In this document: positions 1 through 8,170 of the stretch, piece after piece
How positions within the stretch are numbered: position 1 is the stretch's first letter
Layout: the number at the start of each line of letters is the position of its first letter
Source of the DNA: a virus
Taxonomy: Duplodnaviria > Heunggongvirae > Uroviricota > Caudoviricetes
Virus record (IMG/VR): IMGVR_UViG_2778261088_000001
Strand: one strand, 5' to 3'
DNA: 8,170 nt
Translations under genes and position numbers: made by a program
Notes under the pieces: generated by a model
Told to the model about the DNA's origin: nothing
The model's database searches: none
Seen by the model: only the letters and a program-made list of their open reading frames with translations

Positions 1-191
1 AATCGGTGGAGCTGCATGACAAAGTCATCGGGCATTATCTGAACATAAAACACTATCAATAAGTTGGAGTCATTACCACCTTCATCTACATAAAAACCTT
101 CGTGATGTCTGCATGGAGACAAGACACCGGATCTGCACAACATTGATAACGCCCAATCTTTTTGCTCAGACTCTAACTCATTGATACGCAT
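1..191 (-). CDS. ea8.5: Ea8.5-like protein, N-terminal 63 codons (gene runs off the left edge of the window)
   Basis: Minus-strand ATG at 191-189 preceded by AGGAG (CAAGGAGTTTATAA-ATG); frame stays open to position 1, reading MRINELESEQKDWALSMLCRSGVLSPCRHHEGFYVDEGGNDSNLLIVFYVQIMPDDFVMQLHR. Position left of ea22 matches lambda gene order. Identification from memory. Confidence 0.6.
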   Translation of the reverse strand, partial: MRINELESEQKDWALSMLCRSGVLSPCRHHEGFYVDEGGNDSNLLIVFYVQIMPDDFVMQLHR

Positions 192-382
192 TTATAAACT
201 CCTTGCAATGTATGTCGTTTCAGCTAAACGGTATCAGCAATGTTTATGTAAAGAAACAGTAAGATAATACTCAACCCGATGTTTGAGTACGGTCATCATC
301 TGACACTACAGACTCTGGCATCGCTGTGAAGACGACGCGAAATTCAGCATTTTCACAAGCGTTATCTTTTACAAAACCGATC

Positions 383-931
383 TCACTCTCCTTTGATGCG
401 AATGCCAGCGTCAGACATCATATGCAGATACTCACCTGCATCCTGAACCCATTGACCTCCAACCCCGTAATAGCGATGCGTAATGATGTCGATAGTTACT
501 AACGGGTCTTGTTCGATTAACTGCCGCAGAAACTCTTCCAGGTCACCAGTGCAGTGCTTGATAACAGGAGTCTTCCCAGGATGGCGAACAACAAGAAACT
601 GGTTTCCGTCTTCACGGACTTCGTTGCTTTCCAGTTTAGCAATACGCTTACTCCCATCCGAGATAACACCTTCGTAATACTCACGCTGCTCGTTGAGTTT
701 TGATTTTGCTGTTTCAAGCTCAACACGCAGCCTCCCTACCGTTAGTGCAATATCCTCGTTCTCATTGTCGCGGCGTTTGACGTATTGCTGGTTTCTTTCC
801 CGTTCATCCAGCAGTGCCAGCACAATCGATGGTGTTACCAGCTCATGGAAAAGGTCAGCGTCAAATCCCCAGTTGTCATGCATTGCCTGCTCTGCCGCTT
901 CACGCAGTGCCTGAGAGTTAATTTCGCTCAC
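383..931 (-). CDS. ea22: Ea22-like protein (182 aa), exo-xis region
   Basis: 182-codon ORF in the track; same length and position as lambda ea22. Start codon is GTG (plus-strand CAC at 929-931) and overlaps the orf73 stop by GTGA, implying translational coupling. Confidence 0.8.
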   Translation of the reverse strand: MSEINSQALREAAEQAMHDNWGFDADLFHELVTPSIVLALLDERERNQQYVKRRDNENEDIALTVGRLRVELETAKSKLNEQREYYEGVISDGSKRIAKLESNEVREDGNQFLVVRHPGKTPVIKHCTGDLEEFLRQLIEQDPLVTIDIITHRYYGVGGQWVQDAGEYLHMMSDAGIRIKGE

Positions 932-1149
932 TTCGAACCTCTCTGTTTACTGATAAGCTCCAGATCTTCCTGGCAACTTGCACAAGTCCGACAACCCTGA
1001 ACGGCCAGGCGTCTTCGCTCATCTATGGGATCGCCACACTCACAACAATGAGTGGCAGATATAGCCTGGTGGTTCAGGCGGCGCATTTTTATTGCTGTGT
1101 TGCGCTGTAATTCTTCAATTTCTGATGCTGAATCAATGATGTCTGCCAT
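928..1149 (-). CDS. orf73: TraR/DksA-family C4 zinc-finger protein (lambda Orf73-like, 73 aa)
   Basis: 73-codon ORF with two Cys pairs (HCCECGDPI and QGCRTCASC) typical of TraR/DksA C4 zinc fingers; sits between ea22 and the orf61 region as in lambda. Confidence 0.8.
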   Translation of the reverse strand: MADIIDSASEIEELQRNTAIKMRRLNHQAISATHCCECGDPIDERRRLAVQGCRTCASCQEDLELISKQRGSK

Positions 1150-1200
1150 CTTTCATTAATCCATGAATTGTTGGTTAATACGCTTGAGGGTGAATGCGAA

Positions 1201-1225
1201 TAATAAAAAAGGAGCCTGTAGCTCC
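1201..1225 (-). terminator. Candidate intrinsic terminator on the minus strand (GC hairpin plus T6)
   Basis: Plus strand 1205-1225 is AAAAAA-GGAGC-CTGTA-GCTCC; on the minus strand that is a 5-bp GC stem with 5-nt loop followed by TTTTTTATTATT, 23 nt downstream of the 1248 stop codon. Confidence 0.45.
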
Positions 1226-1247
1226 ATGATGATTTTGTTTTTCATGC

Positions 1248-1529
1248 TCACCGTTCCTTAAAGACGCCGTTTAACATGCCGATCGCCAGGCTTAAATGAG
1301 TCGGTGTGAATCCCATCAGCGTTACCGTTTCGCGGTGCTTCTTCAGTACGCTACGGCAAATGTCATCGACGTTTTTATCCGGAAACTGCTGTCTGGCTTT
1401 TTTGATTTCAGAATTAGCCTGACGGGCAATACTGCGAAGGGCGTTTTCTTGCTGAGGTGTCATTGAACAAGTCCCATGTCGGCAAGCATAAGCACACAGA
1501 ATATGAAGCCCGCTGCCAGAAAAATGCAT
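1248..1529 (-). CDS. orf61: Hypothetical protein from the orf61 region; frame and length differ from the lambda reference as I recall it
   Basis: 93-codon ORF from ATG 1529, no convincing SD; alternative start at ATG 1463 (MTPQQENALR...). An upstream in-frame ATG at 1559 overlaps orf63 by 20 nt, as lambda orf61 does, but is separated from this ORF by TGA at 1532-1530. See findings. Confidence 0.45.
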   Translation of the reverse strand: MHFSGSGLHILCAYACRHGTCSMTPQQENALRSIARQANSEIKKARQQFPDKNVDDICRSVLKKHRETVTLMGFTPTHLSLAIGMLNGVFKER

Positions 1530-1539
1530 TCAGTGGTTG

Positions 1540-1731
1540 TCATACCTGGTCTCTCTCATCTGCTTCTGCTTTCGCCACCATCATTTCCAGCTTTTGTGAA
1601 AGGGATGCGGCTAACGTATGAAATTCTTCGTCTGTTTCTACTGGTATTGGCACAAACCTGACTCCAATTTGAGCGAGGCTATGTGCCATCTCAATGCTCG
1701 TTCTTAACTCAACAGGAGATGCTTTGTGCAT
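1540..1731 (-). CDS. orf63: Orf63-like protein (63 aa), exo-xis region
   Basis: 63-codon ORF; length and position match lambda orf63; overlaps orf60a by 28 nt. Confidence 0.7.
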   Translation of the reverse strand: MHKASPVELRTSIEMAHSLAQIGVRFVPIPVETDEEFHTLAASLSQKLEMMVAKAEADERDQV

Positions 1732-1886
1732 ACAGCTCCCCGTTTATTATTTATCTCCTCAGCCAGCCGCTGTGCTTTCAGGGGATTTCGGGTAACAGAA
1801 AGGCCGGGAAATACCCAGCCTCGCTTTGTAACGGAGTAGACGAAAGTGATCGCGCCTACCCGGATATTATCGTGAGGATGCTTCAT
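1704..1886 (-). CDS. orf60a: Orf60a-like protein (60 aa)
   Basis: ORF track gives 62 codons from ATG 1892; I place the start at ATG 1886-1884, which overlaps the exo TGA stop (1883-1885) in an ATGA coupling arrangement and gives the 60 codons of lambda orf60a. Confidence 0.65.
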
Positions 1887-2563
1887 CGCCATTGCTCCCC
1901 AAATACAAAACCAATTTCAGCCAGTGCCTCGTCCATTTTTTCGATGAACTCCGGCACCATCTCGTCAAAACTCGCCATGTAATTTTCATCCCGCTCAACC
2001 ACGACATAATGCAGGCCTTCACGCTTCATTCGTGGGTCATAGTTGGCAAAGTACCAGGCATCTTTTCGCGTCACCCACATGCTGTACTGCACCTGGGCCA
2101 TGTAAGCCGATTTTATGGCCTCGAAACCACCGAGCCGGAATTTCATGAAATCCCGGGAGGTAAACGGGCATTTCAGTTCAAGGCCGTTGCCGTCACTGCA
2201 TAAACCATCGGGAGAGCAGGCGGTGCGCATACTTTCGTCGCGATAGATGATCGGGGATTCAGTAACATTCACGCCGGAAGTGAACTCAAACAGGGTTCTG
2301 GCGTCGTTCTCGTACTGTTTTCCCCAGGCCAGTGCTTTAGCGTTAACTTCCGGAGCCACACCGGTGCAAACCTCGGCAAGCAGGGTGTGGAAGTAGGACA
2401 TTTTCATGTCAGGCCACTTCTTTCCGGAGCGGGGTTTTGCTATCACGTTGTGAACTTCTGAAGCGGTGATGACGCCGAGCCGTAATTTGTGCCACGCATC
2501 ATCCCCCTGTTCGACAGCTCTCACATCGATCCCGGTACGCTGCAGGATAATGTCCGGTGTCAT
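1883..2563 (-). CDS. exo: Lambda-type 5'-3' exonuclease Exo (Red alpha), 226 aa
   Basis: 226-codon ORF; sequence ([37 protein letters not shown]...GFVFGEQWR) matches lambda Exo as I remember it; ATG overlaps the bet stop. Confidence 0.95.
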
Positions 2564-3345
2564 GCTGCCACCTTCTGCTCAGTGGCTTTCTGTTTCAGGA
2601 ATCCGAGAGCTTTCACTGCTTCGACCTGTGTCAGTTCTGACGATGCGCGAATGTCGCGGCGAAATATCTGGGAACAGAGCGGCAATAAGTCGTCATCCCA
2701 TGTTTTATCCAGGGCAATCAGCAGAGTGTTAATCTTCTGCATGGTTTCATCGTTAACCGGAGTGATGTCGCGTTCCGGCTGACGTTCTGCAGTGTATGCG
2801 GTATTTTCGACAATGCGCTCGGCTTCATCCTTGTCATAGATACCAGCAAATCCGAAGGCCAGACGGGCACACTGAATCATGGCTTTATGACGTAACATCC
2901 GTTTGGGATGCGACTGCCACGGCCCCGTGATTTCTCTGCCTTCGCGGGTTTTGAATGGTTCGCGGCGGCATTCATCCATCCACTCGGTAACGCAGATCGG
3001 ATGATTACGGTCCTTGCGGTAAATCCGGCATGTGCAGGATTCATTGTCCTGCTCAAAGTCCATGCCATCAAACTGCTGGTTTTCATTGATGATACGGGAC
3101 CAGCCATCAACGCCCACCACCGGAACGATGCCGTTCTGCTTGTCAGGGAAGGCGTAAATTTCTTTCGTCCACGGATTAAGGCCGTACTGGTTGGCGACGA
3201 TCAACAATGCGATGAACTGCGCATCGCTGGCATCGCCTTTAAATGCCGTCTGGCGAAGAGTGGTGATCAGTTCCTGTGGGTCGACAGAATCCATGCCGAC
3301 ACGTTCAGCCAGCTTCCCAGCCAGCGTTGCGAGTGCTGTACTCAT
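2560..3345 (-). CDS. bet: Lambda-type single-strand annealing protein Bet (Red beta), 261 aa
   Basis: 261-codon ORF; matches lambda Bet in length and recalled sequence; sits between gam and exo. Confidence 0.95.
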
Positions 3346-3350
3346 CCGTT

Positions 3351-3767
3351 TTATACCTCTGAATCAATATCAACCTGATGGTGAGCAATGGTTTCAACCA
3401 TGTACCGGATGTGTTCTGCCATGCGCTCCTGAAACTCAACATCGTCATCAAACGCACGGGTAATGGCTTTTTTGCTGGCCCCGTGGCGTTGCAAATGATC
3501 GATGCATAGCGATTCAAACAGGTGCTGGGGCAGGCCTTTTTCCATGTCGTCTGCCAGTTCTGCCTCTTTCTCTTCACGGGCGATCTGCTGGTAGTGACGC
3601 GCCCAGCTCTGAGCCTCAAGACGATCCTGAATGTAATAAGCGTTCATGGCTGAACTCCTGAAATAGCTGTGAAAATATCGCCCGCGAAATGCCAGGCTGA
3701 TTAGGAAAACAGGAAAGGGGGTTAGTGAATGCTTTTGCTTGATCTCAGTTTCAGCATTAATATCCAT
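3351..3767 (-). CDS. gam: Gam (RecBCD inhibitor), 138-codon long form with an internal start for the 98-aa short form
   Basis: 138-codon ORF matching lambda Gam. Internal ATG at 3647-3645 ([12 protein letters not shown]...) is preceded by AGGAG (plus-strand CTCCT at 3655-3659), the classic short-form start. Confidence 0.93.
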
Positions 3768-3865
3768 TTTTTATAAGCGTCGACGGCTTCACGAAACATC
3801 TTTTCATCGCCAATAAAAGTGGCGATAGTGAATTTAGTCTGGATAGCCATAAGTGTTTGATCCAT
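3722..3865 (-). CDS. kil: Kil (host cell-division inhibitor), 47 aa
   Basis: Within the 89-codon ORF 3722..3991, ATG at 3865-3863 preceded by AGGAG gives 47 aa ([47 protein letters not shown]), matching lambda Kil; overlaps the 3' end of cIII. Confidence 0.85.
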
Positions 3866-3998
3866 TCTTTGGGACTCCTGGCTGATTAAGTATGTCGATA
3901 AGGCGTTTCCATCCGTCACGTAATTTACGGGTGATTCGTTCAAGTAAAGATTCGGAAGGGCAGCCAGCAACAGGCCACCCTGCAATGGCATATTGCAT
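3834..3998 (-). CDS. cIII: CIII (FtsH inhibitor that stabilises CII), 54 aa
   Basis: Within the 78-codon ORF 3834..4070, ATG at 3998-3996 preceded by AAGGAG gives 54 aa ([54 protein letters not shown]), matching lambda CIII. Confidence 0.88.
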   Translation of the reverse strand: MQYAIAGWPVAGCPSESLLERITRKLRDGWKRLIDILNQPGVPKNGSNTYGYPD

Positions 3999-4070
3999 GG
4001 TGTGCTCCTTATTTATACATAACGAAAAACGCCTCGAGTGAAGCGTTATTGGTATGCGGTAAAACCGCAC

Positions 4071-4439
4071 TCAGGCGGCCTTGATAGTCATATCATCTGA
4101 ATCAAATATTCCTGATGTATCGATATCGGTAATTCTTATTCCTTCACTACCATCCATTGGAGGCCATCCTTCCTGACCATTTCCATCATCCCAGTCGAAC
4201 TCACAAACAACACCATATGCATTTAAGTCTTTCGAAATTGCTATAAGCAGAGCATGTTGCGCCAGCATGATTAATACAGCATTTAATAAAGAGCCGTGTT
4301 TATTTAGTCGGTATTCAGAGTCTGACCAGAAATTATTAATCTGGTGAAGTTTTTCCTCTGTCATTACGTCATGGTCGATTTCAATTTCTATTGATGCTTT
4401 CCAGTCGTAATCAATGATGTATTTTCTGATGTTTGACAT
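4071..4439 (-). CDS. ea10: Ea10-like protein, 122 aa
   Basis: 122-codon ORF at the lambda ea10 position; ATG 4439 preceded by GAGGA. Confidence 0.8.
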   Translation of the reverse strand: MSNIRKYIIDYDWKASIEIEIDHDVMTEEKLHQINNFWSDSEYRLNKHGSLLNAVLIMLAQHALLIAISKDLNAYGVVCEFDWDDGNGQEGWPPMDGSEGIRITDIDTSGIFDSDDMTIKAA

Positions 4440-4455
4440 CTGTTCATATCCTCAC

Positions 4456-4485
4456 AGATAAAAAATCGCCCTCACATTAGAGGGC
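4456..4485 (-). terminator. Candidate intrinsic terminator on the minus strand between ral and ea10 (tL2-like position)
   Basis: Stem GCCCTC (4468-4473) / GAGGGC (4480-4485) with 6-nt loop; on the minus strand it is followed by GATTTTTTATCTG, immediately upstream of the ea10 RBS. Confidence 0.45.
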
Positions 4486-4621
4486 AAAGAAGATTTCCAA
4501 TAATCAGAACAAGTCGGCTCCTGTTTAGTTACGAGCGACATTGCTCCGTGTATTCACTCGTTGGAATGAATACACAGTGCAGTGTTTATTCTGTTGTTTA
4601 TGCCAAAGATAAAGGCTACCA

Positions 4622-4823
4622 TCAGGCAGCCTTGTTGTTCTGTTTGTCAAGTTCTCTGGCAATCATTGCCGTCGTTCGTATTGCCCATTTATCGACATAT
4701 TTCCCATCTTCCATTACAGGAAACATTTCTTCCAGGCTTAACCATGCATTCCGATTGCAGCTTGCATCCATTGCATCGTTTGAATTGTCCACACCATTGA
4801 TTTGTATCAATAGTCGTAGTCAT
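4622..4823 (-). pseudogene. ral: ral (restriction alleviation) disrupted by a +1 frameshift
   Basis: ATG at 4823-4821 opens a frame reading MTTTIDTNQWCGQFKRCNGCKLQSECMVKPG... that stops after 44 codons; the -1 frame (track ORF 4622..4810) carries the Ral C-terminus EEMFPVMEDGKYVDKWAIRTTAMIARELDKQNNKAA. The two join into a 66-aa Ral if one C is removed from TTCTTCCAGG near 4730-4734. Confidence 0.6.
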
Positions 4824-4893
4824 ACGGATAGTCCAGGTATTGTTCCATCACATCCTGAGGATGCTCTTCGAACTCTTCAAATTCTTCTTCCAT
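4807..4893 (-). CDS. Small acidic ORF (28 aa), lambda orf28-like
   Basis: ATG at 4893-4891 preceded by TAAGGTGATAT; translates MEEEFEEFEEHPQDVMEQYLDYPYDYDY, stop at 4809-4807; overlaps the ral start. Very short, so the call is tentative. Confidence 0.35.
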   Translation of the reverse strand: MEEEFEEFEEHPQDVMEQYLDYPYDYDY

Positions 4894-4945
4894 ATATCAC
4901 CTTAAATAGTGGATTGCGGTAGTAAAGATTGTGCCTGTCTTTTAA

Positions 4946-5080
4946 CCACATCAGGCTCGGTGGTTCTCGTGTAAAGGGCATGCCAAGCAAGTCGATGCTG
5001 CATATGCAAAAGAATGCGCGCTGGAAGGTATGGCGAGAACACAGGTTATCTGGCTGAAAGAGGGGGTTATTAAGGCGTGA
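4946..5080 (+). pseudogene. 3' fragment of a ybcO-like (DLP12 nin-region) gene, lacking its start
   Basis: Frame opens after TAA at 4943-4945 with no start codon and reads [44 protein letters not shown]; the last ~30 residues match my recollection of the YbcO C-terminus. Stop at 5078-5080 overlaps the rusA GTG (GTGA). Confidence 0.45.
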
Positions 5081-5439
5081 ATACCTACAGCATCACATTA
5101 CCCTGGCCTCCGAGCAATAACCGCTACTACCGGCATAATCGCGGGCGCACGCACATCAGCGCAGAAGGGCAGGCATACCGTGATAACGTCGCCCGAATCA
5201 TTAAAAACGCAATGCTGGATATCGGCCTGGCTATGCCTGTGAAAATCCGCATTGAGTGCCACATGCCGGATCGCCGTCGCCGTGACCTGGATAATCTGCA
5301 AAAAGCCGCTTTTGACGCACTCACTAAAGCAGGTTTCTGGCTGGATGATGCTCAGGTCGTTGATTACCGCGTTGTGAAGATGCCTGTTACCAAAGGTGGG
5401 AGGCTGGAACTGACCATCACCGAAATGGGGAATGAATGA
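5077..5439 (+). CDS. rusA: RusA Holliday-junction resolvase, 120 aa
   Basis: 120-codon ORF with GTG start; [26 protein letters not shown]...[12 protein letters not shown] matches DLP12 RusA as I recall it. Confidence 0.92.
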
Positions 5440-5661: not shown

Positions 5662-6045
5662 ATGCGTGATATTCAGATGGTTCTTGAGCGTTGGGGTGCG
5701 TGGGCGGCTAATAATCATGAAGATGTGACCTGGTCGTCCATTGCCGCCGGTTTTAAGGGATTAATTCCTTCAAAAGTAAAATCTCGCCCGCAATGTTGTG
5801 ACGATGACGCGATGATCATTTGCGGGTGCATGGCCCGTCTGAAAAAGAACAACAGCGATTTACACGATTTATTAGTAGATTATTATGTATGTGGTATGAC
5901 ATTCATGTCACTGGCAAGTAAGCATTGCTGCTCGGATGGTTATATCGGGAAAAGGTTACAGAAGGCTGAGGGCATAATTGAAGGGATGTTAATGGCATTA
6001 GATATCCGGTTAGATATGGATATCGTTGCTAATAATTCTAATTGA
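5662..6045 (+). CDS. quuD: Q-family late-gene antiterminator (QuuD-like), 127 aa
   Basis: Track ORF begins at TTG 5647; I place the start at ATG 5662, preceded by GGAG with 7-nt spacing ([24 protein letters not shown]...). Contains a Cys cluster ([12 protein letters not shown]). Matches DLP12 QuuD from memory. Confidence 0.88.
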
Positions 6046-6182
6046 TATGCAATTGTTTACTAAAAGTTATTAAAAATGGGGCGTGGAAACGCCCCCAAAA
6101 TAAAGGGTAATATATAACAGAAGGTTTATATAGTAAGAAGCAAGGTAGTGCTTCTAAAGGAAGTGGCTTGAGGGCTCCACTT

Positions 6183-6222
6183 ATATGTTGCGGAGGCAAA
6201 GCCTCCCGCAACATATCTTTTT
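6183..6222 (+). terminator. Strong intrinsic terminator on the plus strand downstream of the Q gene (candidate tR'-like element)
   Basis: 15-bp stem ATATGTTGCGGAGGC (6183-6197) / GCCTCCCGCAACATAT (6201-6216, one bulged C) with AAA loop, followed by CTTTTT (6217-6222); ends 11 nt before the porin stop codon on the other strand. Confidence 0.55.
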
Positions 6223-6233
6223 CGTAAGTCAGA

Positions 6234-7316
6234 TTAGAACTGATAAACCAGACCTACAGCGACGATGTCGTCGGTATCAATACCAGCTGTTTTGGTAAAC
6301 TTACTATCGTCAATTAAGTTGATTTTGTAATCAACAAAAGTGGACATGTTTTTATTAAAGTAGTAAGTAGCACCGACATCGACATACTTGACTAAGTCTC
6401 GGTCACCATGAACACCAAGGTCTTTACCTTTTGACTGAAGGTAAGCAACAGATGGGCGCAGACCGAAGTCAAACTGATATTGTGCTACTGCTTCAAAGTT
6501 TTGTGCTTTGTTTGCAATATGGTTATTACCAAAAACGGTCATATTCTGAGTTTCAGAATATGTGGTAGCCAGATAGATATTGTTCGCATCATATTTCAGG
6601 CCTGCAGCCCATACTTCCGCATTTTTGCCGGAGGCATTGAATTTGCTCTTACCATAGGCGACCTGACCGTCAGTGCGATCTGATTTAGCATAGGTTGCAC
6701 CCACGCCGAATCCTTCATACTCATAAGTAGTGGAGAAACCGAAACCATCACCATTGGCTTCAGTTACGTCAGTGCGGTCATTTTTACCCTGATACTGAGC
6801 AGCAAAGTTCAGGCCATCGACCAGACCAAAGAAGTCGTTGTTACGATAAGTTGCAACACCAGTAGTGCGACCAGTCATGAACACATCTGTTTGGGTCCAG
6901 GTATCACCACCGAATTCTGGCAGAACGTCAGTCCACGCACCGATGTCGTATGCTACACCGTAGTTACGGCCGTAATCGATTGAGCCGTAATCACCAAATT
7001 TCAGGCCTGCAAATGCAAGACGGGTTTTGTCTTTGGAAGAACCTTGAGATTCAGCACGGTTGCCTTTGAATTCATATTCCCACTGACCGAAACCAGTCAG
7101 TTGATCGTTGATTTGGGTTTCACCTTTGAAGCCAAGACGGGCATAAGTAGTATCACCATCATCTGCATCATTAGAGGAGAAGTAGTGCTTGGCATTAACT
7201 TTCCCGTATAGATCCAGCTTGTTACTGTCTTTATTATAAATTTCAGCTGCCTGAGCAGACATCGCCATCAGTACTGATGCAGCTACAGCAGAAATTGCCA
7301 CTGTTAATTTTTTCAT
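6234..7316 (-). CDS. nmpC: Outer-membrane general porin precursor (NmpC/Lc/OmpC family), 360 aa, apparently intact
   Basis: Track ORF is 380 codons from ATG 7376; I call ATG 7316, which gives a classic signal peptide ([23 protein letters not shown] / AEIYNKD). The protein ends in the porin C-terminal Phe (...VGLVYQF). No insertion element interrupts it. Confidence 0.92.
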
Positions 7317-7390
7317 TGTACGCCCTTTTTTTGAACTATTATTAAAAAATGATGTCACTGCGCGATAAATATTCATCTAATCAATGTGAT

Positions 7391-7410
7391 TATTTCAAGA
7401 TGTAAGTTTT
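7391..7410 (-). promoter_or_regulatory. OmpR-box-like motif upstream of the porin gene (tentative)
   Basis: Minus strand reads AAAACTTACATCTTGAAATA, resembling the ompC C1-type OmpR site TTTACATTTTGAAACATCTA as I recall it (TTACAT..TTGAAA core), about 75-95 bp upstream of the porin ATG. No -10/-35 pair defined. Confidence 0.25.
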
Positions 7411-7742
7411 AGTTTCTCATTTAATTTGTGAAGTAGATCTCTATTTTTATCTGAACCTTTTCTATCTAATCCTATTCATGGCTCTTGTCTGAACAAAAAT
7501 AAATCTATTAGCTAATTTATATTAATGGCACTTATTTATAAGTGCTCTATAATTCTTTAGCTTAATTTAAACAAACTAAAAATAACATCGGAAATTATTG
7601 GCTGGTTATTTGTTGAAGTTTTCTTATGTATTTGTGGTGGTATTTTGAACACTCGGTGGCATTCTCACAAATATCATTTAGTAGTTTACGTACGTAAAAA
7701 ATTGGTTATGCTGTTAAGAGTGGTTACTTCGTCACACAGCTT

Positions 7743-7777
7743 AAACCCGCCGTCGAGCGGGTTTTTCCATTTTTTGA
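7743..7777 (+). terminator. Intrinsic terminator on the plus strand, 130 bp upstream of the holin gene
   Basis: Stem AAACCCGC (7743-7750) / GCGGGTTT (7757-7764) with loop CGTCGA, followed by TTCCATTTTTTG. Confidence 0.55.
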
Positions 7778-7904
7778 GTCTCGATATTAGCTGATAACCC
7801 AATACCTGAGTTATTCACTGACTCCGAATCTGTTACGTTTCTGCCTTTATTGCGATACGTAGTATCCCCTTAATTTACACCCGCTTTGTCTGCGAGGTGG
7901 GGTT

Positions 7905-8120
7905 ATGAAATCCATGGATAAGTTAACAACGGGTGTCGCCTATGGTACCTCAGCAGGTAGTGCCGGGTACTGGTTTTTACAGTTGCTCGATAAAGTCACG
8001 CCCTCACAGTGGGCGGCAATAGGTGTGCTGGGAAGTCTAGTTCTGGGCTTTTTGACTTATCTGACAAATCTTTATTTCAAGATTAAAGAAGATAAGCGTA
8101 AGGCTGCACGGGGAGAGTAA
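7905..8120 (+). CDS. essD: Class II holin/pinholin, phage-21 S21-like (EssD-like), 71 aa with a dual-start motif
   Basis: 71-codon ORF; [31 protein letters not shown]... matches S21/EssD from memory; Met1-Lys2-Ser-Met4 dual start; RBS GAGGTGG upstream; charged C-terminal tail. Confidence 0.9.
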
Positions 8121-8124
8121 TTCA

Positions 8125-8170
8125 ATGACTCAAAACTATGAACTGATTGTGAAAGGGATCCGCAATTTTG
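8125..8170 (+). CDS. 5' end of the gene following the holin (presumed lysis gene; identity not determinable)
   Basis: ATG at 8125 preceded by GGGAGAG with 7-nt spacing; frame open to the window end (MTQNYELIVKGIRNF...). Only 15 codons are present; they do not resemble the R21 or RrrD N-termini I remember. Confidence 0.3.
   Translation, partial: MTQNYELIVKGIRNF

Follow-up and report, generated by a model that had tools for sequence, protein, structure and literature searches.

The stretch of DNA analysed here, referred to as the window, comprises 8,170 nucleotides of a virus of the Caudoviricetes (IMG/VR record IMGVR_UViG_2778261088_000001). The gene order in its right part is rusA, Q, a porin gene on the minus strand and a holin gene. 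An interval of 588 bp (7317-7904), opened by the porin start and closed by the holin start at 7905, separates the last two genes; the porin start, with its 5' side at 7316, was taken from the annotation of lc in phage PA-2. The features in this part of the window, with leader positions counted from the presumed transcription start (+1), are as follows.

5077-5439: RusA gene
5662-6045, plus strand: Q antiterminator gene, 127 aa (Pfam PF06530, E = 7.7e-54)
6046-7681, minus strand: porin cassette, between Q and the predicted late promoter
6095-6078, minus strand: porin terminator, part of the cassette, near the Q stop codon
6184-6222, plus strand: bulged hairpin with CTTTTT (-21.9 kcal/mol, z = -6.4), just before the porin stop codon
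6234-7316, minus strand: porin coding sequence of the lc/nmpC type (Porin_1, E = 2e-151)
7317-7681, minus strand: AT-rich DNA upstream of the porin gene (27.7% GC)
7424-7444, minus strand: putative CRP-type site ATTTGTGAAGTAGATCTCTAT, 108-128 bp upstream of the porin start (from the PA-2 annotation)
7685-7698, plus strand: palindrome TTTACGTACGTAAA, putative Q-binding element overlapping the -35 hexamer
7685-7690, plus strand: predicted -35 hexamer TTTACG, the first six bases of the palindrome
7707-7712, plus strand: predicted -10 hexamer TATGCT, 16 nt after the -35 hexamer, aligning with TATCAT of the 933W and Sakai pR'
7719 +/- 1, plus strand: transcription start, placed by homology with the Sakai Stx-phage pR'
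7719-7742, plus strand: conserved first 24 nt of the leader, AGTGGTTACTTCGTCACACAGCTT
7721-7729, plus strand: candidate sigma-dependent pause element TGGTTACTT, within the leader
7743-7764, plus strand: stem-loop AAACCCGC-CGTCGA-GCGGGTTT (8 pairs, 5 of them G-C; 6-nt loop)
7743-7777, plus strand: predicted intrinsic terminator, consisting of this stem-loop (+25 to +46) and then TTCCATTTTTTGA
7778-7904, plus strand: remaining 127 nt of the lysis-operon 5' UTR, as read from the sequence
7894-7899, plus strand: Shine-Dalgarno sequence GAGGTG ahead of the holin gene
7905-8120, plus strand: gene S for an S21-type holin with two possible starts (MKSMDK...; Pfam PF04971, E = 7e-35)

Positions 78-4973 correspond to lambda 29542-34437 (exo, bet, gam, kil, cIII, ea10 and part of ral) with 98% identity. 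The lambda cIII thermoregulator RNA element (RF01804) is matched over its full length at 3953-4011 on the minus strand (88.5 bits, E = 4e-21). At 4973/4974 the lambda-like DNA gives way abruptly to the sequence immediately preceding rusA, leaving out N, the immunity region, O, P and most nin genes. The junction is absent from complete E. coli genomes, GTDB species genomes and IMG/VR contigs; it reflects either an internal deletion that is rare or a sequence that has been spliced. At the right end, the lysis genes lie on the same strand as the presumed late unit, the holin gene being followed by a further ORF from 8126. The 434B record labels the two starts of the holin gene antiholin and holin. 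As far as the window extends (8126-8170), the following ORF begins MTQNYELIVKGIRNF; in PA-2, DLP12 and ev017 a signal-anchor endolysin (MPPSLRK...) follows the same holin. A module boundary seems to lie directly after S.

According to the initial annotation, the 588-bp interval is AT-rich and devoid of credible ORFs, and it carries a plus-strand terminator that has no plus-strand gene immediately upstream. The lack of coding potential is borne out by our analysis. The sole ORF of at least 40 aa (7645-7794; 49 aa, TTG start) is without a Pfam match, and we rejected it as a gene, as it belongs to no family found and crosses both the predicted promoter and the terminator. A tRNA scan of 7317-7904 found none, and an Rfam search of the same interval yielded no family at E <= 1. 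It is also correct that a plus-strand gene directly upstream of the terminator is absent, since the porin coding sequence is on the minus strand and its 5' side ends at 7316. The base composition, on the other hand, fits the description only in part: 7317-7681 is indeed AT-rich, but 7682-7904 has a GC content of 42.6%, close to the window mean of 45.3%. Because the GC content of the two portions differs in this way (27.7% vs 42.6%), the interval consists of two modules, not one. The first, 7317-7681, comprises the regulatory DNA that precedes the lc/nmpC porin gene of the minus strand. To judge by homology, the second, 7682-7904, is a late-promoter unit of the type known from Stx phage 933W. 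Thus, about 365 bp of what had been regarded as a late region belong to the porin, and only the remainder can be assigned to the late unit. Of 5426 complete E. coli genomes, 3277 contain the region, 2355 of them with a match covering at least 80% of it; phage PA-2 and the K-12 prophage DLP12 carry it as well. An AT-rich match beside ybcM in another E. coli genome led nowhere. RpoE is said to control the DLP12 lysis genes in reports cited in PMC7918800, and we therefore scanned 7317-7904 for a sigma-E type promoter; none was found with a loose motif.

The limits of the porin cassette can be drawn on both sides. Homology to phages lacking a porin gene begins at 7682-7689. The CRP-type site at 7424-7444, which is annotated in the PA-2 record J02580 and has an identical sequence in the window according to the alignment, probably belongs to the porin promoter region. 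On the Q side, 6046-6233 matches just 36 phage records, and a full-length Q of at least 95% identity is found in 35; from these two numbers, the segment apparently travels with the porin cassette, not with Q in general. Q and the porin gene are convergent with overlapping ends, and the porin terminator is located 140 bp beyond the hairpin at 6184-6222. We take the minus strand from 6233 to about 6070, roughly 165 nt, to be the IpeX sRNA, which is encoded downstream of nmpC in DLP12; the Rfam search assigned no family to this stretch.

The second module has many relatives. Its stretch 7682-7766 shares about 78% identity with about 280 Stx-phage records, in which the homologous DNA overlaps or directly follows the Q stop codon. 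In 933W (AF125520) this DNA is annotated with pR', qut and a 'possible rho-independent terminator', and the window aligns base for base with the Stx promoter TTTACG-16 nt-TATCAT. For the Sakai Stx phages, dRNA-seq placed the pR' start 258 nt upstream of the tR' 3' end (PMC7547250), which is 7 nt past TATCAT on the Sakai sequence. Relative to the corresponding start in the window, the palindrome TTTACGTACGTAAA, of which the window contains a single exact copy, sits at -34 to -21. Further downstream the homology to Stx phages stops at about 7766 (+48), and 7689-7899 is 73.5% identical to the DNA from promoter unit to holin in Shigella phage SfII. The predicted promoter agrees with the consensus at 8 of 12 positions and falls below the threshold of our promoter scan (9/12). 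A different -35 element, TTGAAC at 7645-7650, had been proposed initially. This motif is restricted to porin-carrying phages and is located outside the homology to late promoters, which begins at 7682, so we have abandoned it.

Within the leader, columns 1-9 are invariant in 25 variants, these columns lying within the search word that was used to gather the loci. The best -10-like words, TACTTC and TTACTT, are weaker than the TACATT of 933W. It is important to note that the second CRP site in the PA-2 record of 1986 coincides exactly with leader positions +1 to +21 (7719-7739 in the window). Since this stretch is conserved in phages without the porin, the CRP label is probably wrong.

With respect to the terminator, the earlier assignment of a clean plus-strand element at 7743-7777 was reproduced, as the scan returned the stem at 7743-7764 followed by TTCCATTTTT. 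The RNA fold of 7740-7777 has a free energy of -12.0 kcal/mol (z = -3.4), and 1 of 200 shuffled sequences folds equally well. No second terminator was detected on the plus strand from the late promoter to the holin gene; at the sequence level, the predicted intrinsic terminator stands between the late promoter and the late genes. By a crude scan, a GC hairpin with a T-run is present at the same place in 52 of 59 distinct leaders, and seven divergent loci have an unrelated GC hairpin plus T-run at +31 to +61. Among leaders of the common form, variation is seen in the loop but not in the stem. A covariation test revealed 0 pairs changed on both sides (97% of cells paired), and because the stems are nearly invariant this test is uninformative for the hairpin.

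Two natural alleles of the stem exist, which differ at 7759 in the 3' arm: the window has GAGCGGG (-11.6 kcal/mol), and PA-2 has GAGCTGG (-5.4 kcal/mol). The weak G-to-T allele is found in locus L001 and in about one third (24/73) of the loci that were selected by their Q protein (see below), along with one deletion variant. Since GAGCTGG recurs in nature, the PA-2 base is not a sequencing error; this allele may leave the lysis operon leakier. In lysogens of Stx phages, pR' RNA extends to a second terminator at +258 (PMC7547250), and therefore the homologous first hairpin is an incomplete block in these phages. Both the read-through to +258 and the frequency of weak alleles argue against a tight block by the terminator. 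The supplementary files of a K-12 3'-end mapping study (PMC7815308) list neither essD nor nmpC.

The Q protein of the window shows 81% identity to Q of Stx2 phage II over residues 1-120. Phage 21 had been suggested as a standard of comparison, yet resemblance to phage 21 is confined to the holin: Q, which belongs to the 933W type, matches Q21 as a distant relative (E = 4e-8 over 81 residues). After the conserved 120-residue core it ends with the seven residues IVANNSN (6022-6045). In Stx phages, 24 different residues follow the core, and their coding sequence overlaps the phage's own pR'. The Q proteins of PhiR55_1 and ev066, which likewise have cargo after Q, are short (121 and 125 residues). 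As cargo-bearing Q genes are short in the same way, the cargo junction is apparently at the end of the conserved Q core.

To relate Q proteins to late promoters we used two surveys. The first one comprised 135 loci gathered by a conserved leader word; an upstream PF06530 Q was present in 111 of them, and 102 had a Q that could be clustered, giving about ten groups at 78% identity. A distinct palindrome at -34 to -21 characterises each of these Q clusters (at least 78% identity), irrespective of the distance between Q and promoter, which ranges from 20 bp to 2.4 kb. The form TTTAC(G/A)..CGTAAA goes with the Q group that contains the window and 933W, and the palindromes of other Q groups are CGCGGTCCGCA, AACGCGTACGCAAA, TTGTGTTATAACAA, TTGTGGAATTCCAA and TTCGTTACGAA. 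Leader conservation in this survey is partly built in, as the search word lies within the leader and the sample is redundant. In the second survey, loci were selected by the Q protein alone, provided that enough downstream DNA was available (n = 73). All 73 have TTTACGTACGTAAA and the leader 1.66-1.69 kb past Q; in the window, 1672 bp separate the Q stop codon from the leader word. The textbook arrangement, in which the promoter abuts Q, is therefore not found here, the unit being 1.64 kb away. Adjacency to Q is usual, not defining, since a gap of 0.6-2.9 kb occurs in 82 of the 111 loci. Because the palindrome tracks the Q type, accompanies this Q in every one of the 73 loci and occurs as a single copy in the window, 7685-7777 can be regarded as the late unit of this very Q. 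From the same pattern we infer that TTTACGTACGTAAA would be the recognition site of Q.

Homology and architecture, the correspondence of palindrome type with Q type and the predicted hairpin all point in one direction: with a probability of roughly 85%, 7685-7777 is the late promoter unit that serves Q at 5662-6045. Of the two explanations offered in the initial annotation, the one that placed a late promoter under Q control downstream of the porin gene, followed by a short leader and a tR'-type terminator, thus agrees with both the homology and the comparative evidence. The presumed course of events, for which promoter activity, pausing, Q binding and terminator efficiency are all predicted, would be the following. 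A modest sigma-70 promoter (TTTACG, 16 nt, TATGCT) would fire near 7719. By analogy with the late promoter of phage 82, RNA polymerase would halt at about +25 with sigma retained. In the absence of Q, the polymerase would proceed, the hairpin from +25 to +46 would fold and the transcript would be released in the U-run; the product would be a leader of roughly 50-60 nt, with the genes for the holin, the endolysin and later functions remaining silent. If Q is present, it would bind TTTACGTACGTAAA, load onto the paused polymerase and render it resistant to the hairpin. Transcription could then pass through the untranslated stretch of 127 nt into S, the first late gene to be reached by read-through. 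As the unit lies downstream of the minus-strand porin cassette, this arrangement would entail no antisense late transcription through the porin gene.

Two other interpretations of the promoter and terminator were weighed. One could imagine that the true late promoter directly follows Q (6046-6183), that the hairpin at 6184-6222 acts as tR', that the late RNA runs antisense to the porin gene and that 7685-7777 is a relic. A pR' adjoining Q is what lambda and 933W have, and the hairpin in question, which starts 139 bp past the Q stop codon and precedes CTTTTT, is very stable. However, scans of the window found no Q-type palindrome, no conserved leader and no promoter-like site in 6046-6233, and this segment is seen in just the 36 phage records mentioned above, so we discarded it as the site of the late promoter. 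Moreover, the palindrome that goes with this Q type in all loci examined lies in 7685-7777. We thus regard this arrangement as extremely improbable. According to the other interpretation, the terminator mainly insulates the holin gene from stray plus-strand transcription originating in the AT-rich DNA ahead of the porin gene, or from transcripts that read through from further upstream, and its RNA is a by-product or is antisense to the porin promoter. The hairpin at 7743-7764 is the sole plus-strand terminator between the porin gene and S, a plus-strand site at 7525-7553 matches the promoter consensus at 10 of 12 positions, and the AT-rich nmpC/essD intergenic region of K-12 has been counted among the 'promoter islands' (PMC3661553). 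Nevertheless, promoter-like sites are rarer in the window than in shuffled sequences (6 found vs 14.7 expected). Hairpin and promoter are also kept together in phages that have neither the porin nor the AT-rich upstream DNA (933W, PhiR5_1 and phiP27), and on account of this joint conservation the hairpin belongs to the late unit. Insulation as the main function is therefore very unlikely; it could be a role that the terminator plays alongside its part in the late unit.

The other explanation given initially, namely that the terminator ends a small RNA or a read-through transcript antisense to the porin promoter, holds in a trivial sense, as a terminated leader would itself be an RNA of roughly 50-60 nt; for an antisense regulator of the porin promoter we found no evidence. 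It is conceivable that this leader is a constitutive, trans-acting prophage sRNA analogous to StxS, a regulatory RNA that arises as a by-product of pR' (PMC7547250). The leader is predicted to end in a GC hairpin with a U-run. Such an end is usual for Hfq-bound sRNAs. In addition, the mean identity across Q types is 87% for positions -7 to +24, as against 55% for the Q proteins; the leader is the best-conserved stretch of the unit even across Q types that share 40-60% protein identity. Against this stands the partly circular nature of the conservation, the loci having been gathered with the leader word. There is no Rfam match, and the window has no homology to that part of the Stx transcript which gives the 74-nt StxS: a blastn search with the remaining Stx transcript gave chance matches only. 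Overall, we consider it unlikely that the leader (about 7719 to 7770-7777) is a widespread trans-acting sRNA or, alternatively, that Q loading depends on its actual sequence and not just on its shape. If it were an sRNA, it would be made constitutively from prophages in over half of the complete E. coli genomes, K-12 included.

Apart from the late unit itself, the junction between Q and pR' attracted our attention. The inserts of 0.6-2.9 kb in 82 of the 111 loci with an upstream Q (a redundant sample gathered by the leader word) have a low GC content (31-41%) and, with few exceptions, lie on the minus strand. Their cargo includes the porin, a lipoprotein-like gene, two-gene sets with a membrane protein and, in phage ev066, a Blc lipocalin. 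PADLOC matches were obtained for two further cargo proteins, a KAP NTPase (candidate PDC-S20) and an HNH protein (PDC-M68A). The loci surveyed were L016-L135 from IMG/VR, the phage records L004 and L009-L011, and 6046-7681 of the window. In this phage family, the junction appears to be a cargo site for minus-strand genes, among them candidate defence genes.

The unit would set the timing of the holin and the other late genes, and with late transcription starting downstream of the porin gene, the lysogenic-conversion porin and the lysis operon would not collide. It also fills a gap in annotation: the RefSeq record of K-12 has no annotation between nmpC and essD, and most of the phage records listed among the matches show nothing or a hypothetical protein here. 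Beyond this gap, we are dealing with a textbook mechanism in a familiar prophage. New work could start from the conserved leader RNA and from the cargo site between Q and the promoter.

A comparison with known systems puts the unit into context. The Stx phages (933W; Sakai Sp5 and Sp15) have the same Q type (81%) and the same position of the -10 hexamer. The palindrome of 933W, TTTACGATCGTAAA, is found at the same place within the annotated pR' and differs from that of the window in the central two bases. Counted from the alignment, 20 of the first 24 leader nucleotides are identical; the Stx hairpin stem equals that of the window from the second pair inward, the outermost pair having A in the window and G in 933W. 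The systems differ in their surroundings. Whereas the Stx promoter sits on the Q stop codon, that of the window is 1.64 kb away. In Stx phages, a second terminator at +258 defines the StxS precursor, and a tRNA and the stx genes precede the lysis genes; the window, in contrast, has a single terminator, with S following 127 nt later.

We presume that Q of phage 82 is of the same type as QuuD and the Q of 933W. At the phage 82 pR', the region from -31 to +30 contains the elements for Q binding and pausing, and the polymerase pauses at +25 (PMC4914094). Compared by published positions rather than by sequence, this layout fits the window, where the palindrome spans -34 to -21 and the hairpin begins at +25; by this analogy, a pause near +25 would be expected. 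The pR'-6S RNA-tR' system of lambda follows the same logic of a constitutive promoter, a proximal pause, a terminated leader and Q-dependent read-through into S, but with a Q of a different family and without sequence similarity. Lambda Q belongs to a different Pfam family, the lambda leader has 194 nt, compared with the roughly 50-60 nt predicted for the window, and the lambda pR' abuts Q. In phage 21, Q21 recognises two 8-bp subsites arranged as a direct repeat (bioRxiv 10.1101/651190), whereas the element of the window is a palindrome and thus not of the Q21 type.

DLP12 of K-12 (quuD-nmpC-essD) and phage PA-2 (lc) have the same gene order as the window. PA-2 shows 92-93% identity across the 588 bp. 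On the K-12 sequence NC_000913.3, the predicted transcription start would fall at 577,229 and the predicted 3' end of the leader at about 577,278-577,287. In K-12, nmpC is disrupted by IS5, which expands the gap between Q and promoter to 2.9 kb. Since the DLP12 sequence is identical to the unit of the window from -41 to +68, the unit is one that is already known, ordinary though poorly annotated.
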